A stretch of DNA of 64,000 nucleotides from Candidatus Deferrimicrobiaceae bacterium (GCA_963725055.1 CAVRXE010000004.1:7808-71807); one strand, 5' to 3'. Positions 1 to 56,791 are shown, numbered from the stretch's first letter. Translations and numbers: made by a program. The notes: a model not told the origin generated them from the sequence alone.

Positions 1-70
1 GGCCGGACTTTCGGGATCGGGGCGCCTTCACGACCTGATCGTAAACGTCTACGCCGTCACCCCGGGGGAA

Positions 71-616
71 TTGAAAGAGGAGGGAGCGGGCCTTACGATC
101 CGTTACGGAGTCCACCGGGGCCCCTTCGGAGACTTCCTGCTCGCGATCACCGGCAAGGGAATCTGCGCGTTGTCGTTCCTGGGGCAGGGCGGCGCCCGGG
201 GAGCGGTGGAAGCGCTCCGGAAGGAGTGGGCGGGATCGAGGCTCGTCGAAGACCCGGATACCACGAAAACCGTGGCGGACCGCATCTTCGCCCCCCCGCG
301 GAAAGCGGGCACCCCGCCGCTGAACGTGGTCGTCAAGGGAACCAACTTCCAGATCAAGGTTTGGGAAGCCCTCCTCCGGATCCCGGCGGGAAGCGTCGCC
401 GCCTACGAGGACGTCGCCGCCCGGATCGGCACGCCGAAAGCGGTGCGCGCCGTCGGGAACGCCGTGGGACGGAACCCCGTCGCGTTCCTCATCCCGTGCC
501 ACCGGGTCCTCCGGAAAACGGGGGCCTTCGGGGGATACGGCGGGGGTGTGGCACGGAAGAAGGCGATCCTCGCCTGGGAGTGGGCCAGGATCCGGGGGCC
601 GGGGAAGGAACGCTGA
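71..616 (+). CDS. ogt: methylated-DNA--protein-cysteine S-methyltransferase (Ogt/Ada C-terminal type)
   Basis: 181-aa ORF with a TTG start. The C-terminal block GTPKAVRAVGNAVGRNPVAFLIPCHRVL carries the PCHR acceptor-cysteine motif. Its stop abuts the convergent uvrA stop (TGA/TCA at 614-619). Confidence 0.9.
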   Translation: MKEEGAGLTIRYGVHRGPFGDFLLAITGKGICALSFLGQGGARGAVEALRKEWAGSRLVEDPDTTKTVADRIFAPPRKAGTPPLNVVVKGTNFQIKVWEALLRIPAGSVAAYEDVAARIGTPKAVRAVGNAVGRNPVAFLIPCHRVLRKTGAFGGYGGGVARKKAILAWEWARIRGPGKER

Positions 617-3459
617 TCAGCTTGCGGCGGCGGGGAGGTGGAGAACCCGCCGGAGGAAGTGCCCGGTGAAGGAGCGCGGGTTCCCCGCCACTTCTTCGGG
701 GGTGCCGCACGCGACGATCTCTCCGCCGGCGTCGCCCCCTTCCGGCCCCAGATCGATGATGTGGTCCGCCGATTTGATCACGTCCAGGTTGTGCTCGATG
801 ATGATCACCGTGTTCCCCGCGTCCGCGAACAGGTGGAGGACGGAGAGAAGCTTCGAGATGTCGTCGAAGTGGAGCCCGGTCGTCGGCTCGTCGAGAAGGT
901 AGACCGTCTTCCCCGTCGCCCGGCGCGACAGCTCCCGCGCGAGCTTCACCCGCTGCGCCTCCCCGCCCGACAGCGTGGTGGCCGACTGCCCCAGCCGGAT
1001 GTACCCCAGCCCGACGCGCGACAGCGTCTCCAGCTTGTGCCGGATCGGCGGGATGGGGAAGAGGAAACGCCAGCGCCTGGTCGACCGTCATCTCGAGGAC
1101 GTCGGCGACGCTCTTCCCCTTGTAGGCGACCTCGAGCGTCTCCCGGTTGTACCGCCGCCCCCGGCACTCCTCGCACGTGACGTAGACGTCCGGCATGAAG
1201 TGCATCTCGATCTTGATGATCCCGTCCCCCTCGCACGCCTCGCACCGCCCCCCCTTCACGTTGAAGGAGTAGCGCCCGGGCGGTACCCGCGGGATTTGCT
1301 CTCGGGGAGCATCGCGAACAGGTCCCGGATCGGCGTGAAGACGCCGGAGTAGGTCGCCGGGTTCGATCGCGGCGTGCTCCCGATGGGGGACTGGTCGATG
1401 TGGATCACCTTGTCCACGTGTTCCAGCCCCGACAGCGACCGGTGCTCCCCGGGCCGCTCCCGTCCGCCGGCGAGCTTCTGGGCGAGCGCCTTGTAGAGGG
1501 TGTCGAGGATCAGCGTCGACTTCCCGGAGCCCGAGACCCCGGTGACGCACGTGATGACCCCGAGCGGGATCGTCACGTCGATCCCCTTCAGGTTGTTCGC
1601 CCGGCATCCCTCGAGCCGCAGCGCGTGCCCGTCGGATACGCCGCCGTTCCCGCGGGACGGGAATCTCCTTCTTCCCGGCGAGGTACTGCCCGGTCAGGGA
1701 CGCCTCGCACCGGAGGATCTCCTCCGGGGTCCCCGCCGCCACTACGTGCCCGCCGTGCTCCCCCGCGCCCGGCCCCATGTCGATCACGTGATCCGCGGTC
1801 CGGATCGTCTCCTCGTCGTGCTCGACGACCAGCACCGTGTTCCCGAGGTCGCGCAGCCGGGTCAGGGTGGACAGGAGCCGCCGGTTGTCCCGCTGGTGCA
1901 GCCCGATCGACGGCTCGTCGAGGATGTAGAGTACGCCCATCAGCGACGCGCCGATCTGCGTGGCCAGCCGGATCCGCTGCCCCTCGCCGCCGGAAAGGGT
2001 CGCGGATGCCCGGGACAGCGTGAGGTAGGAGAGCCCCACGTTCGCGAGGAAGGTGAGGCGCGACCGGATCTCCTTCAGGATCCGGGAGGCGATCTCCTCC
2101 TCGCGCGGCCGACAGCGGCAGGTCGCGAAAGAAGGCGAGCGACTCCTCCACCGGCAGGGCGGTCACGCCGTCGATCCCCTTCCCCGCGACGGTGACGCAC
2201 AGCGCCTCCTTCTTCAGCCGCGCTCCCCCGCACGCCCGGCACGGCCGGTTGTTCATGTACCGGGAGAGCTCTTCCCGCACATCCTCTGAGTCGGTCTCCC
2301 GGAAGCGCCGTTCCAGGTTGTTCACCACCCCCTCGAACGGCTTCGTGAAGGAGAATTGCCGGTCCCCTTCCTCGAGGGCGAACCGGACCGGCTCCCCGGC
2401 CGATCCGGAGAGGACGAGCCGTCGAACCCGCTCGGGCAGCTTTCCGAACGGCACGTCGAGGGAGAACCGGTAGTGGGACGCGAGGGAGGAGAGCGTCTGC
2501 CGGTAGAAGATCTGCGTGCGGCGGCTCCACGGGTCGATCGCCCCCTGCCGGATCGTCTTCCCGGGGTCGGGGACCACCAGGTCCGGGTCGAAGTAGATCG
2601 TCGACCCGAGCCCGTCGCACTCCGGGCACGCCCCGTGGGGACTGTTGAAGGAGAACAGGCGCGGGGTGACCTCGGGGAGGCTAACGCCGCAGTCGGGGCA
2701 GGCGAACTTCTCGCTGCAGATCGTGCCGTTCCCCTGCCCGTCCACCACGCGCACCAGCCCCTCGGACAGCTTGAGACACAACGCCACGGAGTCGGCCAGC
2801 CGGCCGCGCGACCCTTCCGAGACCTTCAACCGGTCCACGACGACGTCGATGTCGTGCTTGCGCTGCTTGTCGAGGACGATCGGCTCCGCGGGGTCCCTCG
2901 TCTCCCCGTCCACCACCACGCGGGAAAAACCGTCGCGGGACAGCTTCGCGAGCTCCTTGCGATACTCCCCCTTGCGTCCCCGGACGATCGGCGCCCACAG
3001 CTGGACCCGCGCGCCGTCCCCCATCGCCATCACGGCGTCGACGATCTGCGTCACCGTCTGCCGGCGGATCTCTTTTCCGCAGGAGGGGCAATGGACCCGT
3101 CCGATGGAGGCGAACAGCAGCCGCAGGTAGTCGTAGACCTCGGTGACCGTTCCCACGGTGGAGCGGGGATTCTTCCCGACCGACTTCTGCTCGATCGAGA
3201 TTGCGGGGGAGAGCCCCTCGATCACGTCGACGTCGGGCTTCTCCATCTGCTCGAGGAACTGGCGGGCGTAGGCGGAGAGCGACTCCACGTACCGCCGCTG
3301 CCCCTCGGCGTAGATCGTGTCGAAGGCGAGCGACGATTTCCCGGAGCCCGAGACCCCGGTGATCACGACGAGCCGGTCGCGGGGGATCTCCACGTCGATG
3401 TTTTTCAGGTTGTGCGCGCGGGCACCGCGCACGACGATCCGGTCCAGGGCCACCGTCAC
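617..3459 (-). pseudogene. uvrA: excinuclease ABC subunit UvrA, reading frame interrupted about four times as assembled
   Basis: N-terminus is [57 protein letters not shown]. Also present are a second Walker A ([12 protein letters not shown]), LSGGEGQR, the zinc-finger text GGRCEACEGDG and the C-terminus [16 protein letters not shown]...[11 protein letters not shown]. The homologous text hops between minus-strand ORFs 1588-3459, 489-2039, 1256-1576 and 617-949. Confidence 0.9.
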
Positions 3460-7737: not shown

Positions 7738-10700
7738 TTACATGGTACTGCCGGTATCGAACCGGCTCAACAGGTTTTTCGCCGCCGCCAGGATTTCCGC
7801 GGGATCGTGGCCGGGAAGGCGCATCGCGAGGATCTCACCGCGGACGAAGGAGAAACACTTCCGCTCCCGCGTCACCCAGGAGACCAGTTTCGCCCGGTCG
7901 AACGGGGAGTGGGCGGAGAGGGTGAGGAACAGGGAGCCGTCCCCGCGCTTGAGCTCCGCCACTCCCGCGGAGCGCATTGCGGCGCGCATCCGCGCCAGGT
8001 CGCACAGCACGCGGGCGGGGGCGGGAAGCCGGCCGAACCGGTCCAGCAGCGCCATCTCGATCTCGTCCGCGGCGTCCACGGTCTTCGTCGACGACAGCTT
8101 CCGGTAGAACTCCAGGCGCTCCCCGGCCTCGTCGATGTAGTCGTCCGGAAGGAACGCCGGGACGCGAAGGTCCAGTTCCGGCTCCTCCTCCTGCGAGGAG
8201 GCGATCCCCGAAATCTCCGCTACCGCCTCGGAGAGCAGCTGCGTGTACAGCTCGTACCCGACCTGGTGAATCTGTCCCGACTGGTCCTTCCCGAGAAGGT
8301 TTCCCGCTCCCCGGATCTCGAGGTCGTGGGAGGCGATCCGGAAGCCCGAGCCGAGCTCCGTGAGTTCCTCGAGCACGGCGAGCCGCCGGGTGGCGTCCCT
8401 GCCGAGAGCCACGTCTTTCGGGACGACGAAGTACGCGTACGCCCGGTGGCGGTCGCGGCCTACGCGACCCCGGAGCTGGTACAGCTGCGCCAGCCCGAAC
8501 CGGTGCGCGTGGTTCACGAGGATCGTGTTCGCGTTGGGAAGGTCCAGCCCGGCCTCGATGATCGCGGTGCACAGGAGAATGTCGGCGCGGCGCGACGCGA
8601 AGTCGTCCATGGCGACCGACAGGGTCTCCTCGTCCATCTGTCCGTGCCCCACGGCGATCCGCGCGTCGGGGAGAAGCTCGCGCAGGTACCGCTCCATCGC
8701 GGGGAGGGTCTGCACCCGGTTGTGGACGAAGAAGACCTGCCCGCCCCGGCGGATCTCCCGATCCACCGCCTCGCGGATCGTCTCGCCCGAGAAGGGGACG
8801 ACGAAGGTTCGGATCGAGAGCCGGTCCTCGGGGGGGGTGGCGATCAGGCTCACGTCCCGGATCCCGGAGAACGCCATGTGCAGCGTCCGGGGGATCGGCG
8901 TTGCCGACAGCGTCAGCACGTCGACGGCGGCGCGCATCCTCTTCAACCGTTCCTTGTGCGCCACCCCGAACCGCTGCTCCTCGTCGATCACCACGAGCCC
9001 GAGGTTCCTGAACGTCACGTCCCTCTGCAGCAGCCGGTGCGTGCCGATGACGACGTCCACCGTGCCGTTCGCCAGCCTCTTCACCACCTCCGCCTGCTCC
9101 TTCCGGGTGCCGAACCGCGACAGGTTCGCCACCCGCACGGGGTACCCCGCGAGGCGGCGGGTAAACGTCTGGTAATGCTGCTCCGCCAGGATGGTCGTCG
9201 GAACCAGCACCGCCGCCTGCTTCCCCGCCATCACCACCTGGAACGCCGCGCGGATCGCCACCTCGGTCTTGCCGTATCCCACGTCGCCGCAGACGAGCCG
9301 GTCCATCGGACGGAGGGAGGAGAGGTCGGACAGCACCTCGCGGATCACCTGCTCCTGGTCCGGCGTCTCCTCGTGGGGGAACGCCGCCTCGAATTCCCGG
9401 AAGACCGCGTCGGGCGGAGAAACGGGGGCCTTCTCGGCCAGCTGGCGCTTCGCCTGCAGGTCCACCAGCTCCTGGGCCATCGCGAGCAGGTCGTCCCGCA
9501 CCTTCCGCTTGGCGCGCTGCCACGCCGTCCCCCCCAGGCGCGACAGCTGCGCGCGCCCCTCCTCGGACGCCACGTACCGCTGCACCCTGGACATCTTCTC
9601 CACGGGGACGAACAGCCGGTCGCCCCCCGCGTACTCGAGGACGAGGTAGTCCCCCTCCGTCCCGGCGGCGGTCCGGCGCAGCAGGCCGCGGTAGATCCCG
9701 ATGCCGTGATCCACGTGGACCGCCGGGTCGTTCACCCGCAGGTCCGCGAGCGAGAACTCCTCGGGGACGGCGATCCGCTCCTTCCGCGGGCGACGCGACC
9801 GGACCTTCTCCCCGAAGATCTCGCTCTCCGTGACGACCGCCGCGCGAAGCTCCGGCGCCCGGAACCCCCGAGTGACCTCCGACCCGCACAGGAAGACACC
9901 GCGGTCCATGGCCAGCGCATCGCGCAGCGTGTCGACGCGGGAGAGCGGAACGGCGTACCGGGAGAGGAAATCCTCCATCCGGTCCACCTGTGACGGGGAG
10001 AGGGAGCTGACGATGAACCGGTCCCCCCGCTTCCACCACGCCTTCGCCTCCTCGGCCAGCGGGTAGAGGAGCCCTTCCGAGGAGGCGGTGGCGGTGCTTC
10101 GGCGGATCTCCTCGTTCCCGTCCACCCCCGCGTCCCCCCGCAGCGGCTCCTTGCGCCCGAAGGGGGGAACCTCGATCCCGTCGAAGGCGAGCATCGGGAC
10201 GCCGGAGAGCGCGGCGACCAGCCCGGCTTCCGGCACGACCAGCTCCGACGGCGCGGGGTACCCCTCTTCCTCTCCCGCGAGGGCGTACATTCTCCTCCGC
10301 CTCCCCGAAGGCGTTCCGGGCGGCGGCGGCGCACTCCACGGAGTCGACCGCCACGACGAAGGCATCCGCGGGAAGGTACGAAAAGACCGGAGCCGCGTGA
10401 CCGTAGAGGCGCGGCAGGAGCGCGTCCGCACCGTGGAACCGGATCCCATGCCGAAGGAGCCTCCGGCCAGGCGTACGGCCTTGAGGCGCGCCCGTCGCAC
10501 GCCGCCGACAGGAAGTCGTCCCGCGTGATCACCTGCGAGCACGGAAGGATCACGAGGCGCTCCCCGTCCCGCGTCCCCGTCCGCCCGCGCTCCCGCCGCC
10601 ACCGTGCGCTGCGTCGCCGGGTGGAACCAGCGCACCGACTCGACGACGTCGCCGTCCAGCAGGAGCCGCGCCGGGAGCGGATGGGCCGGGCTGTAGACGT

Positions 10701-11238
10701 CGACGATCCCCCCGCGCACCGCGAAATCCCCGGGGTCGGCCGCCGCGGGAAGGCGGGAGTAGCCGAGGGTGACGAGACGCGCCGCAGAACGCGTCGACGT
10801 CGAGCGTGTCCCCCGGGGATACCGAGGCGACCGCGTCGACGAAGACCTCGGGAGGGAGCGTCTTCTCCACCGCGGCGGCGATCGGGGAGACGACCACGGC
10901 GGGGGGGCCGGAAAGGAGCCGGTGCAGCGCGCGCATCCGGTCGTGGACCGAGGGGAGGTGCGGGGGGACCGGCTCGTACGGCGTCGCCTCGATGGAAGGG
11001 AACGGGAGGACCGCGTCGGGGCCAAGATAGGCGGTCAGTTCCCGGGTCGCCTCCTCCGCCTCTTTCTCGTCGGCGCACAGGTAAAGGAGCGTGCGGCCGA
11101 GGCGCTCGAAGAGACGGGCCGCGAGGAACGACCGCGCCCCGGGCGGGATCCGCATCCACTGGACGCAAGGGGGGGCCCCCGCTTCGCGAGGGCGAGGGCG
11201 ACGTGCTCGAAGGAGAGCCTGGGGAGCGTGTGGGGCAT
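7738..11238 (-). pseudogene. mfd: transcription-repair coupling factor Mfd, at least five frame disruptions in the N-terminal third as assembled
   Basis: The C-terminal ~800 aa are uninterrupted: LVCGDVGYGKTEVAIRAAF, VIDEEQRFGV, TLSATPIPRTL, QLYQLRGRVGR and a TRG-like region. The N-terminal text (MPHTLPRL..., then [40 protein letters not shown]..., then ...[23 protein letters not shown]...) is spread over three frames between about 10290 and 11238. Confidence 0.9.
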
Positions 11239-11273
11239 TCCGCGAATGGAGGGCCGGTGGGACCCTGCGGATT

Positions 11274-12203
11274 TACGCGGCGTCGCGGGGAACGGCGAGC
11301 ATCGCGTCGAGGGCCGCCTTCGCACGTACCCGCACCGCCTTCGGGCACCGTGATGACCGGCGAGAGGGAGACGAGCGCGTCCCGCACGTCTTCGAGCGTC
11401 GTGAGCTTCATGTTCGGGCACAGAAGAGCGCGCGACGCGATGTGGAACCGCTTCCCCGGGTTCTCCTTCCGGAGCCGGTAGAGGATCCCCATCTCCGTGC
11501 CGACGATGAACTCCTTCGCCGGGGAGCGCCGGCACCAGGCGTACATCCCCGCCGTGGAGAGGACCGCGTCCGCCATCGCCACCACCTCGGGCGGACATTC
11601 GGGGTGGACCACGAGCACGGCGTCGGGGTGGGCCTCCTTCGCCTTCACCGTGGCGTCGACGGTCAGCCGCTCGTGGGTCGGGCAGTAGCCGTCCCACCAC
11701 GTGAGCGGGCGGCCCGACACCTTCGCCACCCACTGCGCGAGGTTCCGGTCGGGGACCATGAAGATCTCCTTCCCCGCCGGGATCGACTTCACCACGTTCA
11801 CCGCGTTGCCCGAGGTGCAGCAGACGTCGGAGAGCGCCTTCACCTCCGCGGAGGAGTTGACGTACGTCACGACGGCGGCGCCGGGATGCGCTTCCCGGTA
11901 CGCCGCGAGGTCGGGCCCGGTGATCATGTCGGCCATCGGGCACCCCGCGTCCTCGCGCGGCAGCAGGACGGTCTTCGCCGGCGACAGGATCGCGGCGCTC
12001 TCGGCCATGAAATGGACGCCGCAGAAGACGATCACGTCCGCCGTCGTCTTCGCCGCCTCCTGCGAGAGCCCCAGCGAGTCGCCCGTGATGTCCGCGATCT
12101 CCTGAACCTCGTCCCGCTGGTAGTTGTGCGCCAGCAGGATCGCGTTCCGCTCGGAAAGCAACTTCCCGATCTCCGCCTTGAGGGCCGGCAGCTCCTTCCG
12201 CAT
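11274..12203 (-). pseudogene. nadA: quinolinate synthase NadA, one frameshift about 20 codons before the stop as assembled
   Basis: [47 protein letters not shown]...[11 protein letters not shown]...VVHPEC...[12 protein letters not shown]. After ...VITVPE the frame must shift by one near 11335 to read [22 protein letters not shown]-stop (TAA at 11274-11276). Confidence 0.9.
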
Positions 12204-20483: not shown

Positions 20484-20570
20484 AAAAAAAACTCCTGCCC
20501 CACGGGTGTCGGGTAGGAGTCATCAGCCTCGAATCGGGGAGGCGGTTCACGGCGAACTCCATCGCCGGGG
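20484..20570 (-). ncRNA. fluoride riboswitch (crcB RNA motif) with intrinsic-terminator expression platform
   Basis: The minus strand reads GGCGAUGGAGUUCGCC-GUGAACCGCCUCCCCGAUUCGAGGCUGAUGACUCCUAC. It has the GGCG/CGCC P1, the GCCUC/GAGGC stem and a GGAGU...ACUCC pseudoknot. Next comes CUCCUACCCGACACCCGUGGGGCAGGAG followed by U8, and the terminator 5' arm overlaps the pseudoknot strand (ON-switch logic). The crcB ATG is about 40 nt downstream. Confidence 0.9.
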
Positions 20571-20642
20571 TTCTGACCTTTACATACCACAGCCGCCCGG
20601 GGGAGGGGAAGCCGGGGGGAGAGGCGGCGCCCCGACCCCGGA

Positions 20643-45797: not shown

Positions 45798-47176
45798 TCA
45801 CCGCTCGCTGATTACCGCAAGGTCTATTCCGCCGTGTAGTAATCCGTCCTTGAAGCGCGATCGTTCGCTCCTCGGGATACCACCTGAATCCTTGCCCGAG
45901 GCCAACGGCGACTGGTCCGGACATAGCGGCCGCTGATCAGGTCGTATTGCACGAATGGTTAGAGGTCGAAAGTCCCGCCCAGTTCCCAGACGGGATGGGG
46001 AATCCTTCCGCGACCTTCCAGAGCTTCCCTTGGCGTCGTAGTCATCCGCCACCAGCGCCAAGCCAGCTGTCCTCGTCGATATAGAAGATCCTCTTCGGCG
46101 AGAGTGCCGCATCCCCTTCTTCACGGTCGCCTCCACCACCCAGACGCGGTGCAGCTCGTAGCGGCGGTAATCGGGCTCAGGAATTTCGGCAGGAGCACGT
46201 CGTGCAGCTTGGCATTGAAGTTATACATCCCGAAGGAGTTGTACGGGACGTACATTTCCTTCTTCCCGACGAGCTTCCAGTCGAACCGGTCCAGATTGCC
46301 GTTGAATATCCAGGGCTGATCGAGGGTGTACTGGTTTTCAAAGCCGATCTGCGGTGAATCGTAGGCATAGGAAGGCATCCGCCGGACCCGGCGCTGGCCG
46401 GGGAAGTAATAGCTGGTTTCGTTCGGCCCTTGCCGAAGTAGTAGGTCTGAACAATCGCCTGCCCGGCGAGAGCGGGCGGTGACTCATAGGCAAAGTAGAT
46501 GCTGTAGATGGGTCATTCACCTGGGCGGGAGTGGTTGCCCCCTTTTTCCCCCAGGGAAGAAGACGGTCTGGGGGCCGTGGGTTTCTATCCATTCCGTGCT
46601 CCCCGGTCGCGGCGAGGCGACCGTGTGGGTATCCGGCCATTCGACACCCATGCCCCGGTAGCGGGTCATGGAAATTCCACATGGCTTCCGACCCGTTTTT
46701 CGGGATGGGAAACGGAATGCCGGGGAGAAAGGCCGTCTTTCAGCGACCAGCCATCCGCGCCGAGTTTGGCGCTTGTCGCATTCTTTCTGGTGTTCGCCTC
46801 GATCGAAATCCGGGAAGCCGGCGTTGCGGTGGGTGGGGTACACGTCCATCTTGTACCCTTTGGTCTGCTTGATGAACTGCACCTGACCCGGACTCAACTT
46901 GTCCTGGTACTTGTCGACATTGGAGGCGTCGATGGAGAACAGCGGCTTTTCGGCCTTGTATTTCGAGTAATCGCCGCGGTACTTGCCATAGGACCACCCC
47001 GCCACGGGACGTCCTTCCCTTCCCAGGCGGGGATCGTTCCTTCCTTGTTCCCCCCCTTTTCCGCCCCCGCGTAGTTCAGCTCTTTCCCCAACCGGGCCAC
47101 ATCCTGGGGCGAAGCACCCCATGCCGTTCCTGCTGCTGCCACGATGAGCGTGATCACAACCAAATCCTCTCATCAT
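45798..47176 (-). pseudogene. DUF1329-family (LolA-like) periplasmic/lipoprotein, many frame disruptions
   Basis: GGAGGAG then ATGATG at 47171-47176. The text includes VVITLIVAAAGTAWGASPQDVARLGKELNYAGAEKGGNKEGTIPAWEGK, KYRGDYSKYKAEKPLFSIDASNVDKYQDKLSPGQVQFIKQTKGYKMDVYPTHRNAGFPDF, and FENQYTLDQPWIFNGNLDRFDWKLVGKKEMYVPYNSF. The 3' end is uncertain (45739-45826). Confidence 0.65.
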
Positions 47177-47482
47177 CTCCTCCCCTCCACCGTAAGGATT
47201 GCTTTCCGATGCATAGAAACCAACGGCACACCGACCAAATTCTGAATGCTTGTCATCAGGCAAAACGGCATCATGAACAAAATCAGCAAACTTCGTTCCA
47301 ATGTTGTACCATGATCACAACTAAACGCAAAATATATCAATAAGTCACTGTTTTATAATATAAATACTGTTTATAAAACGATAAGTCATGCTATTTTCCG
47401 GCTCTATCCTTCCTGCTAATTCCCTAAATTGAGACGAAGTTCTGTAACGCTGTCTCAAATTCGATCAGTCCCATCCCGCTTA

Positions 47483-48220
47483 TCACCCGTACTGCTCCCT
47501 CAATATTTCCCTCAGGGTGTCCAGATCAGCGTCGGGGAACTCTTTGAGCAGGCATGCGATCGCGCCCGAGACCCGCGCGGCGGCAAAACTGTTTCCGCGG
47601 AAATTCCTCTCCCGTGGGAGACCCGGCAGGGAGCGGGGAAACGGGGAAGCAAGACACTCGCACGGATTGTCCGGGCGGTACAGCAACTGATCCTCCCTGA
47701 GCCGGCCGTCTCCCTTCACGCCGATGACCGAATCGTAGGAGGCCGGAACGCTTGCCCCCTTCGACCCGTTCCGCGCGGCCGCCACCAGGATGATCCCTGC
47801 CCTCGCCGCATCGCGGCACAGGGCGCGCAGGGTAGGGGCGTTCGGCGCCGCCGCCATCCCCAGGCTGAGATTCACCACCCGCGCCCCCGCCTGCAGAGCA
47901 TAGGACAACGCCCCCTCCAGAACGTCCGGTGTCGTGGCGAGGGCGCCGTTGAAGACCTTGAGGGCGAAGAGATCGGTTTCCGGCGCCACGTGACGGATCA
48001 CCGCGGCGATGGCCGTTCCGTGACCGGACGTGTCCTGATAGTCCGGCCCCCGATGGACCGCGCCGTCCTCGCCGCGATAGATCCTGGCCCCGTCGATCCT
48101 CCCTCCGACGTGGGAGTGCCGCGGGTTGACGCCCGAGTCGACGACGACGACGCGGACTCCTTTCCCTGCGGGAGTCCCGGAAGGGCGGGCGCCCCAGGGG
48201 ATCGCGCGCCTTCTACGCAT
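47483..48220 (-). CDS. qhpE: subtilisin-like (S8) serine protease, QhpE-type leader peptidase
   Basis: Uninterrupted frame. The triad context is VVVVDSGVN (Asp), SGHGTAIAAVI (His) and GNSFAAARVSG (Ser). It is small, has no signal peptide, and its ATG at 48220 overlaps the qhpF stop by 8 nt. Confidence 0.8.
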   Translation of the reverse strand: MRRRRAIPWGARPSGTPAGKGVRVVVVDSGVNPRHSHVGGRIDGARIYRGEDGAVHRGPDYQDTSGHGTAIAAVIRHVAPETDLFALKVFNGALATTPDVLEGALSYALQAGARVVNLSLGMAAAPNAPTLRALCRDAARAGIILVAAARNGSKGASVPASYDSVIGVKGDGRLREDQLLYRPDNPCECLASPFPRSLPGLPRERNFRGNSFAAARVSGAIACLLKEFPDADLDTLREILREQYG

Positions 48221-49955
48221 GGCTTCCCTCCGGATCCCGCGCGCCGTCGGCGCAGACGCGAAGGAACGATTTGTACGCACCCCGCTGTTGCATCAGTTCC
48301 TCATGGGTTCCCAGGTGACTGACCCGCCCGTCCGAAAGGACCACGATCCGATCCGCATCCCGGACAGCGTGGATCCGGTGGGTCACGATCAGGGTCGTCT
48401 TCCCCTCCATCGTCTCCTTGATCGCGCACCGGATGCGATCTTCCGAGAGGAGGTCGAGGAAGGAGGTCGCCTCGTCGAGAATGAGAATCTCCTGGTTCGT
48501 GCAGGAACGCCCGGGCAAGTGCCACCCGCTGCCGCTGCCCCGCGGAAAGGGACAAGCCCCGCTCGCCGGCGACGGTCGAAAGACCGCGCGGCAGGGAGCG
48601 GACGAACTCCGTCAAGTTGGCCTTGGCGATGGCATCCGCGATCCGCGCGGGGTCGGCTTCGGGCGTTCCGTACCGGATGTTCTCCTCGAGGGTGCCATGG
48701 AAGAGGTACGGTTCGGTGGAGACCAGTGCGATCCGCCGCCGGAGCGTCGCGCGGCGAGCGCGTCCCAGGGGGACCCCGTCGAGCCGGATCTCCCCGCCTT
48801 GCGGCTCGTAGTAGCGGAGGAGCAGGTCCACGAGGGTCGATTTCCCGACGCCGCTCTCCCCGACGAGCGCCACCGTCCTGCCCGCGGGGAGGGTCAGCGA
48901 CATGCCGTCGAGGACACGGGCCTCGCCGCCGTAGGCGAAGACCACGCCGTCAAAGACGATCCCTTCCTTCAGGGAGACGAACTCTTCCGCTCCTTCAGGG
49001 TCGTCCTCCGCGGGGACGTCGAAAAACTCGAATACGCGCGTAAGCGATGCCCTTCCTTTCCGCAACGCCGCGTACTGGCCGAGGAGGTTCTGGATCGGCG
49101 CGATCACTTGCATCTGGAAGGCGGCGAACGCCACAAGCGTCCCCACGGAGATCGCGCCGTCCCGGACCAACCGTGCCGCCGTAGAGGAAGGCGAGCGTGG
49201 CGGAGCACCCCAGCACGAACGAGGGGATCCCGCGGGACAGGGAGAAGATCGTCTGGAATCGGAGGACGGAGCGCACCAGCGACTGGTTCTCTTCCCTCGA
49301 ACCTCCGCAGTCGGTGGCATTCCGTGGCGCTGGACCGCACCAGTCGGATTCCCGTGAAGGTGTCGATGATGCGGGTCCCCACCGCCGCGTTCTTTTCCCG
49401 GATCTCGCGGCTCATACCCGTGATCACGTTGCGGGTCAACCAGAGGCCAAGCACGCCCAACGGGGACGAGGACATTGCTCACGAGAAAGAGAGACCAGGA
49501 CATGGCGACGAGGATGGCGGAGGCGACGACGAGCCGGACGGAACTGGTGACGAACGCCATCGGGACGTCCACGAGAATCCCCGGACCTCCACCATGTCGT
49601 TGTTGAGCCGCGCGACGATCTCCCCCACCCGCGTCCTCCCGAAGAAGCGCATCTCGGCGCGCTCCAGATGATCGAAGAGGGCGACGCGCATGGCGACGAG
49701 GATCTTCGACGCCCCACGCGTGTAGAGATAGCTGCTGACGCCGCCGAGGACCATCCCCGCGGCGGCGTAAAGAACCATGGTGAGGAGAAGGGGGCAGAGC
49801 GCCGCCCAGTTCCCGCGGAGGATGACGTCGTCCACCAGCCTCTTCGACAGGAACGGGGCGTACAGGGAAGCCGCCGTCGCGAGAAGGGAAAGGGCAAACG
49901 TCGCGGCGAGAATCCCCCTGTGCCGGGTACGACTAATCTCCACAAAGTATGCCAT
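48213..49955 (-). pseudogene. qhpF: ABC exporter (fused permease-ATPase), QhpF-type, about 4-5 frame disruptions
   Basis: N-terminal TM region MAYFVEISRTRHRGILAATFALSLLATAASLYAPFLSKRLVDD.... The NBD has VALVGESGVGKSTL, LSAGQRQRVALARAF, ILILDEATSFLD and TLIVTHR. Confidence 0.8.
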
Positions 49956-49963
49956 CCGCCTTG

Positions 49964-51002
49964 TCACGACGCCGCTTCCCGGTAGTAGCAAATGTAGCGC
50001 GCCTCGCAGAATTTCGGCGTGTTCCGGAGCGCTACGGCCTTGGGGGGTGCCCGCTTCCTCCCGGGGGGGCTCCCCGCTCCACCAGGTCGAGGACCCCGCG
50101 AACCACCTGGAGGCTCACGAGCTTCCGGTAGCAGGAAGTACCGCGCCCGGAGATCTTGAGGGAGGTCACCCCCGTGCGGGCGAGGTCGAAGAGCGCGCAG
50201 AGCCCGCAGGGACCGTTCGGGATCCCGCCGGGATTCATCGAGTTGCCGCAGCCGTTCTGGAACCAGACCCAATCCTTGAACGCGCCCATCAGCTCCCGCG
50301 CCCGCTCCCCTTCCGGGCGGGACATGGATCCGCTGGCTCTCCCCCCAGCGAAAGGACACGGTATGGGACCTCCGGCAGCCCGCACGCAAAGGGCCCCGAC
50401 GCTCCGGTGCGTGGTCATGCAATACCCTTCCTCGAAGACGCACCCTTCGTTCAGGACGAACACCTCGGTCTCCAGCCGGCCCGCTGCCGTATCGCAAAGG
50501 GCCGCGATGTCCGCCACACCGAGGCTGCGGGGGAAGATCACCCGCCGGACCCCCAGCTCCGCCAGGAAATCGACCATGCCGGGGTTGAGCGTCGCCATCA
50601 CCGAGGCCGGCGTGGACGGAGAGCCCCGGGAAGGCGCACCGCAGCGCCACCAGGAATCCCACGTCGGAGACGATGACGCCGTCGATCCCGGACTCCCGCA
50701 CGAGCCGGCCGATCACGGGAAGGAGGAACTCCTGCTGTTCCGGCGTGTAGTAGGGGGTGTTGAACGTCACGTGGGACAGGGATGCCGAAGGCATGGGAAC
50801 GCTCCGCCAGGAGGGAGACGTCGTCCCGCTGAACCAGGTTCCCCACCACCGGCCCCCTTCGATTGAGCCAGAAGGCGCCACCGTACCGATCGAGCCATTC
50901 TCGGGGAACGTAGCCGCAGAAGAACTCGCCCGCCCCGTTCTCGGCGAGCATCTCCACCTCTTCGGGGTTGCTGACCGGTACGGTGAGCTTCATCTTCGCC
51001 AC
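49964..51002 (-). pseudogene. U32-family protein, UbiU/RlhA/TrhP-like, about 3 frame disruptions
   Basis: MAKMKLTVPVSNPEEVEMLAENGAGEFFCGY..., ...GIDGVIVSDVGFLVAL..., ATLNPGMVDFLAELGVRRVIFPRSL, EVFVLNEGCVFEEGYCMTTH (C-X6-C) and GVTSLKISGRGTS. It ends 8 nt before the qhpF start. Confidence 0.65.
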
Positions 51003-51959
51003 CCATGACCGTCGCCCGGTACGGTGACGACGGTACCGTCGACCTGCCGGGAGGATGAAATCCGTCCAAGGATTCTCCCGGTGATGGAGGGCGGCACGTT
51101 GTGGTAATACGCGTTCCCGAGATTCAGGAGATTTTTCTCCTTCCCGTTCCCCCCGGGAACGGGAAGGAGGAACTCAACGGCGTACTTCCGGCACTCCGAC
51201 CGGCAAGGAGCGCCCGGGATGAATTTTTCTCCGGGTTCCCGGTGCATCGCCCCCAGCAGGCAGGCGCGACCCATGGTGACGAAGAGGTACGGAAAGTGAA
51301 CCGATACTTTTTCGGACCGGTCCCCCTCGACTCGTCCGCCTCGAGAGGCTGGAGGAACGGGTCGACTTCCCTGCGTCCGATACCGTACCGCGCCATCAAG
51401 GCCCGGAAACCCGGGGCGAGTTCTCCCGATCGGCAGAGCGCCGCCCGGGCGGCCGATCCGCGCCTGCCGGGAATCGAAATAGTCCCGCGAGCCGGGGATC
51501 GCGGAGCATCTTGTGCGTCAGGCGGCCCAGGACGATCGTGAGCCCCGGGTGGAGGGATCTCAGGCCGTGAACCGTCCCCCAGTCGTTCGCGACGACTTCG
51601 GACTCTTCCACGCCATCCAGCGCCCGGACCGCATCCTCCGCCTTCGCGAGGCCGTCCCACGAGAGCGGCGGCAGGACGAGGGACAAGGCGAGTCGCCCCT
51701 CCCGCGTCGACACGACCCAGGAGGCGATCGCCCTGGGCGTCGGGAGGAGCCGTTCACACGTCTCGTTGCCGACGTACACCCGCGACGGTACCGCTCCGGG
51801 AAGGTGCCGAAGGAGCGCCTCGGCGAGCGCGTCGTGCGCATCGCCTGATGCGGGGCCGTGCAACGCTTCCCTCGAGGGAAGCCTCCCCGCGAAGGACCGC
51901 GGGCGGCGGGGCGGCGAGGAAGGGGAAGGAGAGTCCCACCTCCACGCAGTGCCCCGCAC
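50990..51959 (-). pseudogene. U32-family protein, UbiV-like, about 3-4 frame disruptions
   Basis: ...SRVYVGNETCERLLP..., SEVVANDWGTVHGLRSLHPGLTIVLGRLTHKML, and FPYLFVTMGRACLLGAMHREPGEKFIPGAPCRSEC (C-X17-C-X3-C). The start is uncertain (51939-51959), and the stop overlaps the next U32 gene by 13 nt. Confidence 0.55.
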
Positions 51960-52016
51960 CCTCCCGCGGGGACGCCTCCCGGTGCTGCCGGCTCAGGAGC
52001 AAACGGCCGCGCCCCC

Positions 52017-53100
52017 CTACCGTTTCTGGACGCGGAAGTGCGTGAGGACCGCGTCTCCCGGGGTGTCGATTCTCTTCAACAGCTTCATCGTTTCCGAGTC
52101 GTAGATCAAGATCGTGTCGCCGCCGCCGCCAAGGTACAACTTCTTCCCGTCGGAACTGATCTGGATCGTGTAGTAGCTCTTGTCCAGGTCGGCGGCGGTT
52201 TTCAGCACCCGGTTCGTCGCGAAATCCCTCTTCTCCACCGTGTTGAGGACGGTGTAGTAATACTTGCGGTCGGGGGAGATGACTCCCGAAAACTGGATGT
52301 AGAAGGGCCCGATGTCGGTCACGAGCCTCATCGACCCCTCCGTGCTCTTCTTCCGGAGATCGACCGGACACCCTGGTAGATTAGGTTGTTGTTGCTGTTC
52401 TGACTGCCGACCAGGATCATCGCCATCCCGGACTGGTCGTGGAGCCGCCAGATGTTCAGGGAGATCTGCGGGTCGACGCCGGTTGTCGTCGGGTGGCCGA
52501 TCCCGAGGAAGTTCACCTGGCTTCCCGGTCATGGGGTCGTAGAGGCGGCGAACACATCGCGACCGGTGACGTAGAATTCGCTTCCGTCGTACCCGAAGAA
52601 GATGTTCGTGCAGCCGCGCGGGATCTCGATCTCCTTCACGACCTTGCCGGTCGTGAGGTCCAGCACCAGCACCGCGGGCGTCATGTCGACGATCTCGTCG
52701 GAGAGCCACCGCTGCCGCAGGGAGAGGGCGTACAGCAGGTTCGGGTTCGCCGGGTTGAGTCGATGTCGAGAGTCCGGACCTTGACGTCCCCCGATCCCAT
52801 GCGGAACGTGCGGACGACCTTCTTCCCCGCCAGGTCGAGTCGTTCGATCTGCTGCCCCCAGTCGGTGATGGTGTAGACCTTGTCCAGGTCCCTTGGGTCC
52901 CAGGTGAAGTTGGTGACCTTCTTCCCCTTGGTTTCAATCGTCGCGCAGATGATCTCGTCCTTGTCGCCGTCAATGACGTTAAACTTGTTGTGGAGCATCC
53001 CCTGAAGGAGGATGTCCTTGCCGAGTGCCGGGGCGTTGCCCGAGGCGAGCAGCAGGGCCGTCCCGAGCAGCACCATCGCGAAAAAGACCGTTCTCTTCAT
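52017..53100 (-). pseudogene. qhpB: quinohemoprotein amine dehydrogenase beta subunit (beta-propeller), about 4 frame disruptions
   Basis: Signal peptide MKRTVFFAMVLLGTALLLASG. Also present are ...VTNFTWDPRDLDKVYTITDWGQQIERLDLAGKKVVRTF... and the C-terminus YYTIQISSDGKKLYLGGGGDTILIYDSETMKLLKRIDTPGD. The position directly after qhpC matches the qhpADCB order. Confidence 0.7.
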
Positions 53101-53120: not shown

Positions 53121-53477
53121 TTATTCCCTAGTCGTTGATCGCGCCGCCGCGACCCACCACTCCGGCTTGACGACCTTGAGCTTCACCCAGTTCTTCATCG
53201 CCCGGGTGCAGTCGGCGTTCCAGTCAGGGTTGTTGTAGGTATCCGGCGCCTGCCCCGGCCACCAGCAGTACATGTCGGTGGTGCCGAACAGGTCCGTCTC
53301 GATCGGCGTGCACAGTCGCTTTGTGGAGCCGGTCCAGTCGTTCTCGTAGCCGGGGTTGAACACGGAAGTGCAGGTGTGCATGAAGGGGACGATCCCCTGC
53401 GCCTCCACGACCGGAGCGCCCGGGTCGGTCTTCTCGATCTTCCTGCCCTTGCGGTTGACCCCTTTCAGGTGCTTCAT
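53121..53477 (-). CDS. qhpC: quinohemoprotein amine dehydrogenase gamma subunit precursor (crosslinked, quinone-bearing small subunit)
   Basis: Uninterrupted 118 codons: a leader of about 29 aa (MKHLKGVNRKGRKIEKTDPGAPVVEAQGI) followed by VPFMHTCTSVFNPGYENDWTGSTKRLCTPIETDLFGTTDMYCWWPGQAPDTYNNPDWNADC.... The ATG overlaps the qhpD stop (ATGA). Confidence 0.85.
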   Translation of the reverse strand: MKHLKGVNRKGRKIEKTDPGAPVVEAQGIVPFMHTCTSVFNPGYENDWTGSTKRLCTPIETDLFGTTDMYCWWPGQAPDTYNNPDWNADCTRAMKNWVKLKVVKPEWWVAAARSTTRE

Positions 53478-54902
53478 GCGATCCCCCTTTCGCCGAGCAT
53501 CACGTCCAGAAACGTCGGCGTTTCGTTTTGTATGCGGACATAGGCTTGAAGACCCAGCAGGAACAGCTCCCTCTGATCCAACGGCAGTAGTGGACGGAAG
53601 GGGCGAAGAGGTCTCCGTGTCGGAGGTACGCGTCGTGGTAGCACCCCCCCGAGCAGAAGTTTTTCGCCCAGCAGGCGTCTCATGCGCGGATTCGCGGCGC
53701 CGCCTCGCCCCGTCGAGGAACCGGGCCCGGGCCTCTTCCCAGAATCCGGCTTCCGGGCCGCCGAACGAGTCCCCGATGCCGACGAGACGGTGGCACGGGT
53801 AGAAGGCCCCCGATGGGTCCACGGCCAGCATCCCGATCCCCGCCCCGCACGGATACGGCATCGGGTCCCCGCGGTGGATCAGCGCGAGGATCTGCGACAT
53901 GTTCGAGAATGCCGGGACCCGCCGTTCGCGGACGTCGTCCACATACCCGTCTGCAAGGTCCCGGAACCGATCGATCACCGCGCAGACCTCTTTCCTCGGT
54001 CAGCGCGACTGGACTCCCTTCCGCAGCGCTCGCCGGCGCGAAACCGACCTCGTCGAAACCGAGGCCGCGAAGGCGGTTGAACGTCTTCCGCACGTCGACG
54101 GCGCCGCGCCCGAGGGTCACGCGCGCGCCGCGACGGGGAACCCGTTTCTGTTTTCCATCAGGAGTTCGATCCCCCGCGTCACGTCCTCATAGGACCCTCT
54201 CCCCGACGCGTACGGACGGTTCCGATCTTGGATCTCCCGGGGCCCGTCGATGCTAAGACACACGGTGACTCCGTTCTCCTTCAGGAAACCAGCGATCTCC
54301 CGGGTGAGGAGGGTGCCGTTGGTGGTGATGGAGAAGGAGATCTCTTTTCCCCGTTCCCTCGCCATCCTGCGGGCCTCCCCGACGGCCGTTCCAATGAGGG
54401 GGGAAGCGCAGCAGCGGTTCCCCCCCAAAAAAGGTCACGGACACCTTCCGGTCCGCCCCGGCGCGTTCCAGCAGATACGCAACACCGCGGCGGAGCGACT
54501 TCCGGGGACATCTCCCGCGGCGCTCCTCCCCCATCCGCCGGTAGGGTGCACCCTTCCTCCCGGTCCTCGTAGCAGTAGCGGCACGCGAGGTTGCAGGAGT
54601 AGGTGAGCATCAGTACGAGTGTCCCGAGCCGCAGCGGAGGGTGGGCAACACGGTTGGCTCGCCTCCTCCCCAAACCCCTCTGCTTGAAGCAGGCCCGCCC
54701 TCCGGAGGTCCGAGAGGATCTCCGAAGGAAGGGCCGAATCTTCGGCAGAAGCAAGGGGAGACAAGGCCTCCCTCATCCCGTCGTCCATACGGAACAGCCC
54801 GCCGGTTTCGGCGGCGTATACGTACGCCTCCCCATCCGCCGTGAAGCGTCGGTGCGGGAGGAGAGAGGCGCCCGCGCCGCACGTACGCGCGATGTTTGCC
54901 AT
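53474..54902 (-). pseudogene. qhpD: radical SAM/SPASM thioether-forming enzyme QhpD, about 6 frame disruptions
   Basis: MANIARTCG...GEAYVYAAETGGLFRMD, LGTLVLMLTYSCNLACRYCYE (CX3CX2C), VSVTFFGGEPLL, ISFSITTNGTLLT. The SPASM part reads PYPCGAGIGMLAVDPSGAFYPCHRLVG and CWAKNFCSGGCYHDAYL...HYCRW. Confidence 0.85.
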
Positions 54903-54918: not shown

Positions 54919-56518
54919 TTACTGCACCGGTCTCTGGACGTACAGAGGAATGGTCGCGAGCAGGTATCCGCGGGCGAACAGCGTGCCGCCCCCGGGCGCT
55001 GCGTAGGAAGCGGTCACCCAGACGTCCCCCAGGTTGTTTTCCTGCATGAAACGCTTCGGGTTGGGGCCTTCGTCCCCGGGGGTGAAGAGCCCGTTCCGGT
55101 CGATCTTCCCGACGAAATCCACATCGTGATCATCGTTGGTGGCGGCGATCTCCACGACATTCCACGTGGCCGGTACGTGTCCGATCTCGATGTCGTCCCC
55201 GGTCCCCGCCGCGCCGTCGGCGCCCTTGCTGTACGACATGGCGTCGAACTGGACGAGCTGCTTCACGGCGTACCCCAGCCCGCCGGTGCGCGACATCGCG
55301 GGGGACGGCACGACCTTGATATAGTCGACGGCCGTGTAGACCGCGAAGACATTGTCGGCCGAGGCGCCTCCGGCGTTCGCGTTCCGGTGCCCGGTGGTCG
55401 CCTTGTCAGCGACATCCACGGCGACCACCACCTTCGTCGGCGATGCGGAAACGACGTTCTTCACGGTCACGCCTTCGCCCAGACTCACCTCTTTCGAGAG
55501 ACCGGTCCCGACGACCGTCACGGTCGCTCCCTTCGTCCCGGCCTTGAGCGCCTTCGGCATCACGGAGAGGATCCGCGGGCAGCTCCCGGCGAAGGCGCGG
55601 GTTTCAACACCGCGAAGCTCGAAGTGCGGGTCGTCAAACCGGACCCCCCTGAAGGTCGAACCATCCATCGAGATGTGGAAGACTTCACGGATCGGCTTTC
55701 CGGCCAGGGAACCGGACGCCCGCCACGCGTAGCCGCCATAGAGGGTCGCCTTCCCCGAGATCGGCAGCTTCTCCCGTTCTCAAACTCCACCGTTCCGGCG
55801 TATGTATAGAAGGCGTCTCCCGTCTTCTTCAAGTTGATCTCGCCTCCGTACGCCCCTTTCCCGGCCTGGTACCCGGCGACGGCCCACTTCCCCTCGCCCG
55901 CCTTCGGGCGCGACGCGCTCCACTGCTTCCATTCCGGAGTCTCCAGCGGGAACCGCTTCTGCAACTCCTTCACGCAGGCGGCCAACGTCTCGTCCCAGTC
56001 AAGGACGTCCTGGAGTTGGTAGGGCCACATCGGGAGGACGCCCGAGTGCATGTTGGCGAGTTTCGGCCAGTCTTCCGGGGAGCGGCGCTGGAGGGCGGTC
56101 TTCTCTGCGGTAGCCCTGTGGCACCGTACGCAGATGTCGACGATCACCTGGCTGTCCACCTTCTCCTTCGTGTCCCGCTTCTCGAGAGTGTAGGCATACC
56201 CCACCACCTCGGCGGGGGCCAACCCCTGCTTGTCGGAGAAGTAGAGGAGGAGTGCCTCCTTCTCCTCCTTGGTGATGGAGAGACCGTGGATCCGCTTGTG
56301 GCGCCACAACGTCTCCTCCCAAGCTTCCGGCACCTGCCGGAGGTAGGAGATCCGGGAGACCAGCCCCCCGTTGTTCTTGTGGCAGTCGGCGCACTTTTTC
56401 ACGACCAGGTCGCTTGAGACCGGAATCCCCTGGTCTTGCCGAGTGCAGTCCCGGCCCACGCCGTCGCCAGCAAGAATGCCAAGGCAACGATAAAACACAA
56501 TCCCATCTTCCTTCGCAT
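54919..56518 (-). pseudogene. qhpA: quinohemoprotein amine dehydrogenase alpha subunit (di-haem cytochrome c), about 3 frame disruptions
   Basis: AGGAGGAGAGTG then ATG, giving the signal MRRKMGLCFIVALAFLLATAWA. It has two CXXCH sites (KKCADCH, ICVRCH), RRSPEDWPKLANMHSG, and C-terminal Ig-like domains in ORF 54919-55668. Confidence 0.85.
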
Positions 56519-56791
56519 CACTCTCCTCCTCGTACAGTGGGATGATCGGGGGGAACACATCTCGTCTCGGGGCATGGCAGCAAATCCCGTTCCATCGGTT
56601 ATACGTTAATTTTTATTGCATGGAGAAGGCGTGCAATTCCTTAATTTTCAACATTAATATCCTGTTGGGATTAATTTTACAGTAAGAACTCGCAGTAGGG
56701 ATACTTCGAGGTTTCGATAACTCCGGGGGATCACAATTAAGAAACGATGTGTCAAAAACGGGAATTACGGCGGAAATCCGATGCGAAAATA

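Follow-up and report, generated by a model that had tools for sequence, protein, structure and literature searches.

Among described enzymes, the closest to the one considered here is quinohemoprotein amine dehydrogenase (QHNDH), whose gamma subunit, QhpC, carries the cofactor cysteine tryptophylquinone (CTQ). In the model systems, Cys7 of QhpC is preceded by a leader of 28 amino acids (aa), which is bound by QhpD and cut off by QhpE; QhpD forms three thioethers on the leader-bound peptide, QhpG puts both oxygens on Trp43 before any bond to Cys37 exists, and the bond from Cys37 to Trp43 and the last oxidation are believed to come later, with Asp33 as the proposed catalytic base (PMC7876137). 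A peptidyl Trp is likewise turned into a 6,7-quinone for amine oxidation, close to a conserved Asp, in the tryptophan tryptophylquinone (TTQ) of methylamine dehydrogenase and in the CTQ of LodA and GoxA (PMC7876137). Those proteins are unrelated to QhpC, the quinone C4 in them bears a Trp or an upstream Cys, and they are matured by O2- or H2O2-dependent enzymes (MauG for methylamine dehydrogenase, LodB/GoxB for LodA/GoxA). To our knowledge, every characterised tryptophylquinone is substituted at C4, whether TTQ (methylamine dehydrogenase and aromatic amine dehydrogenase) or CTQ (QHNDH, LodA and GoxA). The C4 crosslink may be needed for catalysis, for redox tuning or for biogenesis only. Here we describe a qhpC gene on the minus strand of 64,000 nucleotides from a Candidatus Deferrimicrobiaceae bacterium (GCA_963725055.1, CAVRXE010000004.1:7808-71807; this whole stretch is hereafter the window), which belongs to an environmentally common and conserved clade of uncultured soil and sediment bacteria that has dropped the canonical Cys while keeping all else, and which offers a natural experiment on this point.

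The open reading frame (ORF) from 53477 to 53121 reads through 118 codons without interruption, in agreement with the sequence-only reading that had first drawn attention to it. Its product matched the Pfam family PF08992 (QH-AmDH gamma) at 70.1 bits and the NCBIfam family NF037958 (QH_gamma) at 88.7 bits, above the respective cut-offs of 25 and 50 bits. Among all PDB chain sequences, the only real matches by phmmer were the two solved gamma subunits, 1JJU_C from Paracoccus denitrificans (E=1e-16) and 1JMX_G from Pseudomonas putida (E=1.6e-14). On the strength of these matches, the ORF is identified as a true qhpC, with a predicted gamma-subunit precursor of QHNDH as its product. The features of the gene, numbered as in 1JJU_C and placed by alignment except where stated, were as follows.

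53121..53477, minus strand: full qhpC ORF of the window, 118 codons followed by TAA
53157..53477, minus strand: homology-supported coding sequence of qhpC, 107 codons
53154..53156, minus strand: codon 108, TGG in the window and TAG in all relatives (comparison with relatives)
53391..53477, minus strand: leader, approximately residues 1-29 (MKHLKGVNRK...), by alignment to other QhpC leaders
53343..53372, minus strand: first putative thioether pair, Cys7 (codon 53370..53372) and Glu16 (codon 53343..53345)
53292..53312, minus strand: second putative thioether pair, Cys27 (codon 53310..53312) and Asp33 (codon 53292..53294)
53277..53282, minus strand: Thr-Thr, encoded ACC ACC, in the columns of Cys37 and Ala38 of 1JJU_C, the CTQ cysteine being absent
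53241..53267, minus strand: third putative thioether pair, Cys41 (codon 53265..53267) and Asp49 (codon 53241..53243), enclosing Trp-Trp
53259..53261, minus strand: second Trp of C-W-W, equivalent to the quinone residue Trp43 of 1JJU_C
53208..53210, minus strand: late Cys at mature position 61 (NADC), a feature of all QhpC of non-proteobacterial type
53190..53192, minus strand: Asn (AAC) at +6 from Cys61, where 116/117 QhpC with Cys61 have Asp/Glu; seen in the window alone and possibly a sequencing error

The two PDB references read GC7-x8-E16, C27-x5-D33 and DLYGC37(A/S)DP-C41WW43PAQVxD49, and the aligned stretches of the window protein read C-TSVFNPGY-E, C-TPIET-D and DLFG-T-TDMY-CWWPGQAPD. 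The three Cys-to-Glu/Asp pairs (7-16, 27-33 and 41-49), between which thioethers may be expected, were thus retained at the reference spacing, as were Asp33 and the quinone Trp43 in its C-W-W-P context. The first Cys is residue 36 of the precursor, consistent with a leader of about 29 aa, and the MKHLKxVNRK leader of this clade aligned to the leaders of all other QhpC types. These spacings, the leader length and the C-W-W context had all been proposed in the sequence-only reading, and the alignment bore them out; both references also contain the DLYGC that it gave, with Cys37 six residues before Trp43. In addition to the leader, the Cys-acid pairs and Asp33, the window protein shared the C-W-W-P-x-Q, P-D-W and D-W motifs with its characterised homologs. 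It differed from 1JJU_C and 1JMX_G in overall sequence (approximately 40-47% identity), in having Thr in the Cys37 column and a Cys in the column of Ala61 of 1JJU_C, and in the length of two loops, with one residue added before Cys41 and, in the alignment of clusters and PDB sequences, one deleted between Asp49 and Trp57. No Cys occurred between Cys27 and Cys41/42, and the fourth Cys (NADC) lay 17 residues past the quinone Trp, where the earlier reading had placed it.

We then asked how widely this state is shared. A word-indexed search of 5.8e9 proteins recovered seven intact close relatives (107-118 aa, 72-93% identity), all with DLFGTTDM[YF]CWW and N[AV][DE]C; a scan of GTDB, with one genome per species, added four species-level genomes of the clade (L002-L005), and a metagenome scan a further 52 clade loci. 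Thr37, the one-residue insertion and Cys61 were present in 57/57 intact clade sequences from independent assemblies, as was the combination of GTTDM[YF]CWW with N[AK][DE]C. Both the window and each of the four GTDB species genomes encode Thr-Thr as ACC ACC, although synonymous sites vary among them, and qhpC of the clade showed synonymous divergence (dS) of 0.24-0.42 with a nonsynonymous-to-synonymous ratio (dN/dS) of 0.04-0.24. Amino-acid changes among the aligned clade proteins fell mostly in the leader, leaving the mature peptide nearly invariant, and one 90%-identity cluster alone comprised 311 member sequences. Because all 57 members carry it, its codons are invariant and dN/dS is low, we consider Thr37 a selected state and not an error, and have high confidence that the clade represents a real, functional lineage of QhpC without Cys37.

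The loss of Cys37 was confined to this clade. An exhaustive phmmer search over 1.84e9 cluster representatives yielded 59 QhpC clusters, and a count over these, the PDB sequences, 76 other genome loci and the clade sequences resolved three states.

46 sequences: Cys37 but no Cys61, the canonical proteobacterial type, with both solved structures among them
52 sequences: Cys37 and Cys61 (five Cys), from Acidobacteriota, Nitrospirota, Verrucomicrobia-type and other lineages
57 sequences: Thr37 with Cys61, the window clade only

All 98 intact QhpC outside the clade, drawn from the 59 clusters and 76 other loci, contained Cys37, so that the broad alignment called for by the sequence-only reading, references included, upheld both the Cys that it gave for the reference at that position and its assignment of Thr to the column. 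Among the QhpC surveyed, the loss is unique to the window clade. In most non-proteobacterial QhpC, Cys61 comes on top of the four canonical Cys, making five, and is always followed at +6 by Asp/Glu (examples being L012-L081 of type B, L056, L065, L066, P0022, P0024, P0027, P0030 and P0041). These five-Cys proteins (DLFDC-H-x-G-C-[FY]-W ... T-[AS]-K-C) share Cys61 and the Asp at +6 from it with the window clade, from which they differ in keeping Cys37 and in having Phe/Tyr rather than Trp at residue 42; the searched literature showed no experimental study of them, and a role for their fifth Cys, be it in a fourth thioether or as a free thiol, appears undescribed. In a neighbor-joining tree of QhpD, the window clade formed a separate long branch, while the canonical type, the five-Cys type and a third type (L056, L065 and L066) each formed a coherent group. 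We regard the clade as a deep-branching and strongly conserved QhpC lineage with Cys37 replaced by Thr and one residue added to the 37-41 loop. Near-identical proteins at NCBI are named 'quinohemoprotein amine dehydrogenase subunit gamma' and come from metagenome-assembled genomes (MAGs) of Candidatus Deferrimicrobiaceae and 'Desulfobacteria'; homologs of the neighboring gene X (see below) come from Candidatus Deferrimicrobium, for which the NCBI lineage is Candidatus Deferrimicrobiota. That phylum, formerly MBNT15, has been described as comprising iron reducers that are facultatively anaerobic and live in peat, wetland and sediment (PMC9386147).

The surroundings of qhpC were those of a QHNDH operon in all but one respect. 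Intact relatives had the order qhpA-qhpD-qhpC-qhpB-X-U32-qhpF-qhpE, in which qhpA, qhpD, qhpB, qhpE and qhpF are the partners known from QHNDH; unlike in the canonical operon, qhpG was missing from the locus and a U32-family gene stood with gene X in its place. In the window, the genes were located as follows.

54922..56638, minus strand: qhpA, di-heme alpha subunit, CADCH and CVRCH motifs kept, two frameshifts
53474..54902, minus strand: qhpD, radical SAM/SPASM thioether maturase, read over at least three frames
52017..53100, minus strand: qhpB, beta-propeller subunit, best match TIGR03907, two frameshifts
51002..52002, minus strand: gene X, approximately 330 aa with four invariant Cys, remote U32 homolog, frameshifted
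49967..50993, minus strand: U32-family protein in place of qhpG, candidate O2-independent Trp hydroxylase, best NCBIfam matches UbiU/TrhP, frameshifted
48222..49990, minus strand: qhpF-like ABC exporter, frameshifted
47483..48280, minus strand: qhpE-like subtilisin-type protease (leader peptidase)

The intact qhpD ortholog of L004 had TIGR03906 as its best match, and the TGA stop of qhpD overlaps the ATG of qhpC (ATGA). Beyond qhpE, clade loci had an outer-membrane-associated gene pair, DUF1329 plus DUF1302 (window approximately 45800..47190, minus strand; L004 15748..18913; L002 12875..14269), which also occurred near qhp genes in a few canonical-type loci. Separately, L004 had a qhpB ORF (10378..11946) as long as 522 aa, and its interval between qhpC and the ABC gene was approximately 500 nt shorter than in other clade loci; X was still detected by tblastn, and the shortened region may stem from a deletion, a fusion or faulty assembly.

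QhpG had no tblastn match in the 64-kb window or in 57 loci of the clade, together 513 kb, and U32 and X were found in every clade locus with enough flanking sequence. We clustered all ORFs of 80 genome loci and counted neighbors within 10 kb of qhpC.

35/80 loci: QhpG (NF049967), none of them in the window clade
15/80 loci: U32 and X pair, in 4/4 of the window clade, 7 canonical-type and 4 five-Cys-type loci
0/80 loci: QhpG and the U32 pair together

This lack of overlap was significant by a hypergeometric test that does not correct for phylogeny (p=5e-5). Mutual exclusion of QhpG and a UbiU/UbiV-like pair across QHNDH operons singles out the latter as a concrete candidate for hydroxylating a peptidyl Trp without O2. 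The sequence-only reading had noted a non-canonical hydroxylase candidate beside this gamma subunit, and a UbiU-like U32 protein does adjoin it where QhpG would be expected. Its further suggestion, that the Cys pattern might co-vary with U32 neighbors, held in one direction: all Thr37 loci with enough flank had the pair, and so did 11 loci with Cys37-bearing QhpC (L006, L015-L017, L019, L021, L027, L031, L036, L048 and L078), including low-oxygen isolates or MAGs such as Terasakiella sp. PR1, Magnetospirillaceae and Ectothiorhodospiraceae; L015, L016, L017 and L021 are of the five-Cys type. The pair is therefore not tied to Thr37, and U32 as a marker of the variant was ruled out. In only one locus, L067, did a QhpG gene occur alongside an X-like ORF (1..951, minus strand), which had no U32 partner and ran on the opposite strand at the edge of its contig.

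Regarding the pair itself, the U32 protein matched PF01136 (E=1.6e-30), carried a C-x6-C motif and had UbiU and TrhP as its best NCBIfam matches (57-87 bits against the UbiU equivalog cut-off of 440). X matched no family of Pfam or NCBIfam, and its annotation is 'hypothetical' throughout, yet hhalign connected it to the U32 family (93.9%, E=1.6e-7), and its four invariant Cys are spaced C-x163-C-x18-C-x3-C. AlphaFold2 modeled X poorly, with a predicted local distance difference test score (pLDDT) of 47 and only residues 70-160 modeled, as beta/alpha repeats; Foldseek against the PDB returned nothing below E=0.02, and its weak matches, mostly to (beta/alpha)8 barrels, prove nothing. The pattern C-xn-C-x18-C-x3-C in X resembles the [4Fe-4S] motif of UbiV, C-xn-C-x12-C-x3-C (PMC6747719), and as in UbiU-UbiV the two genes are adjacent, making X a candidate UbiV-like partner of the U32 protein. 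Since UbiU-UbiV are O2-independent, prephenate-dependent hydroxylases (PMC10990095), the pair is a credible candidate for an O2-independent replacement of QhpG, that is, a putative peptidyl-Trp hydroxylase. Its presumed substrate would be a peptidyl Trp, rather than a prenylphenol or an RNA base as in UbiU-UbiV, RlhA and TrhP, and no ubiT-like gene was seen. A full-text literature search found no paper joining QHNDH with U32, or tryptophylquinone with UbiU.

The enzyme of the clade thus lacks the Cys37 that defines a CTQ-bearing gamma subunit, and its operon lacks qhpG. Residues for every maturation step apart from the Cys37 bond were conserved, and, as judged from these residues, the window QhpC would work like a QHNDH gamma subunit yet cannot make the canonical cofactor. 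Because the canonical CTQ cysteine is absent, the proposal of the sequence-only reading, a divergent gamma subunit whose quinone is crosslinked differently or not at all, gained support. The cofactor of this clade would show either that the sulfur donor can move, to Cys61, or that the crosslink is dispensable.

Our leading reading, held tentatively, is that Cys61 is the sulfur donor to C4 of the quinone. In this scheme, the leader would dock QhpC on QhpD, which would make the three thioethers (7-16, 27-33 and 41/42-49/50); the UbiU/UbiV-like pair would act in place of QhpG and add two oxygens, without O2, to the second Trp of C-W-W; QhpE would cut the leader, QhpF export the peptide, and the product would assemble with the di-heme QhpA and the propeller QhpB. 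Cys61 would then capture C4 of the tryptophylquinone, yielding a CTQ crosslink 18 residues downstream of the Trp in reference numbering and not 6 upstream. Several observations are consistent with this scheme. Cys61 is the only thiol of the clade protein outside the canonical thioethers, the Cys count is still four as in the canonical type (one beyond the three thioethers), and only a lineage that already had Cys61 lost Cys37. The flanking loops changed length (one residue more before Cys41, one fewer between Asp49 and Trp57), QhpA and QhpB offer no invariant Cys as an alternative partner, and a substituent at C4 is common to all known tryptophylquinones.

Other observations weigh against Cys61 as the donor. 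It occurs together with Cys37 in 52 QhpC of other lineages, which points to a role of its own beyond the Trp crosslink; Cys61 is therefore older than the loss of Cys37, and the idea of a displaced Cys, implicit in the earlier reading, did not stand even though the position it gave was correct. Moreover, 116/117 QhpC with Cys61 have Asp/Glu at +6, the spacing of Cys27-Asp33, and this acid is compatible with a fourth thioether made by QhpD, which would leave no thiol for the Trp. The AlphaFold2 model of the window QhpC (19-sequence alignment; pLDDT 43.9, predicted template modeling score 0.16) was unusable, and the supplements of PMC7876137 make no mention of residue 61. Finally, the hydroxylations precede the Cys37 bond and do not need it (PMC7876137), so a quinone without any crosslink would be biosynthetically possible. 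On the acid at +6, two further points bear: Asp67 was equally conserved in QhpC without Cys61, and residues 61-72 (CTRAMKDWMKLK; CAAAQKDWRKI in the five-Cys type) have a strongly helical composition, which would disfavor a staple from i to i+6, a distance probably too great for a one-sulfur bridge. For both reasons, the acid is weak evidence of a Cys61-Asp67 bond.

We tentatively prefer the Cys61 crosslink to an uncrosslinked tryptophylquinone, which is possible but somewhat doubtful and in which Trp43 would become the 6,7-quinone with C4 free, Cys61 being either stapled to Asp67 by QhpD, as may also happen in the five-Cys type, or a free thiol; such a cofactor would be a new and simpler kind of protein-derived quinone. 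The same facts that trouble the donor role of Cys61 speak for it, namely the greater age of this residue and its own conserved context (the acid at +6 in 116/117 sequences), together with the lack of a Cys between Cys27 and Cys41/42, the lack of a candidate Cys in other subunits, and the QhpG-type dihydroxylation that is earlier than, and independent of, the Cys37 bond (PMC7876137). The conservation of Asp67 in proteins without Cys61, which makes the acid unspecific for such a bond, and the helical look of residues 61-72 tell against the stapled version. An uncrosslinked quinone would also depart from all characterised tryptophylquinones known to us, which carry a C4 substituent, and an o-quinone with C4 unsubstituted is exposed there to attack from the amine substrate.

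A different partner for C4 is improbable. It could be an ether from the hydroxyl of Thr37 or Thr38, since Thr-Thr is invariant at the Cys37/38 positions in 57 sequences, or a residue of QhpB or QhpA reaching the site, for which each subunit offers one clade-specific Cys. Thr invariance carries little weight in a clade whose entire mature peptide hardly varies, and we know of no Thr-O-quinone crosslink. As for the subunits, Cys165 of QhpB (L129 4125..5210) was present in 95% of 39 clade sequences, replaced by Met/Ile in 2/39, and falls in the column of Ile137 of 1JJU_B, where 1JMX_B has Val and which looks like a hydrophobic site in a blade; Cys220 of QhpA (L129 468..2183) was present in 86% of 28 sequences, with Ala/Ser in 4/28. 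Within the clade and in the comparison of lineages, neither QhpA nor QhpB had an invariant Cys that could serve as disulfide or crosslink partner, and across lineages neither had a Cys co-varying with Cys61. An inter-subunit bond is therefore unlikely, and such a partner was ruled out. That the cofactor is chemically new, with no C4 crosslink or with a partner other than Cys, and with its oxygens from an O2-free, UbiU/UbiV-like and probably prephenate-dependent hydroxylase, is a speculative prospect overall. If so, the C4 crosslink would be dispensable for tryptophylquinone catalysis, and a protein substrate would be added to those of the U32 hydroxylases.

We also regard it as unlikely that no quinone is formed at all, the enzyme being inactive or using another redox center, or the window locus being a decaying pseudogene cluster. 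The defining Cys is gone, and in the window frameshifts spread qhpA, qhpD, qhpB, X, U32 and qhpF over 2-4 frames each, as they do almost every gene in the sequence shared with relatives, next to a qhpC that has lost its stop (TAG to TGG, adding the 11 codons WVAAARSTTRE) and has three private substitutions, Q54R, D96N (mature Asp67 to Asn) and M98V; neither the stop loss nor any of the substitutions occurred in a relative. However, all eight genes were intact in relatives assembled independently, and gaps occurred at approximately 1 per 100 nt over all of the sequence that the window shares with its nearest relatives (45.8-63.9 kb; 88-92% nucleotide identity), a density typical of an indel-error-rich assembly of the long-read type. 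We accordingly judged a pseudogene cluster unlikely, as the frameshifts span all shared sequence and the relatives are intact, and read the frameshifts as apparent assembly errors rather than gene decay; the private QhpC substitutions are probably errors as well, and single-residue peculiarities of the window are not to be trusted, given the indel-rich assembly. Strong purifying selection on qhpC and the retention of Trp43, Asp33, both heme motifs and a dedicated putative hydroxylase pair argue further against an enzyme without a quinone. Last, although the window is demonstrably error-rich, it is extremely improbable that the Thr codon is itself a sequencing or assembly error in a gene that truly has Cys37, as ACC ACC is the same in four GTDB species representatives, Thr-Thr appears in all intact translations of approximately 50 metagenome contigs and 7 database clusters, and a change from ACC (Thr) to TGC (Cys) takes two substitutions; with identical codons in relatives and 57/57 clade members, this explanation was ruled out.

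Elsewhere in the window, a fluoride riboswitch (RF01734) was located at 20507..20575 on the minus strand (61.2 bits, E=1.6e-14).

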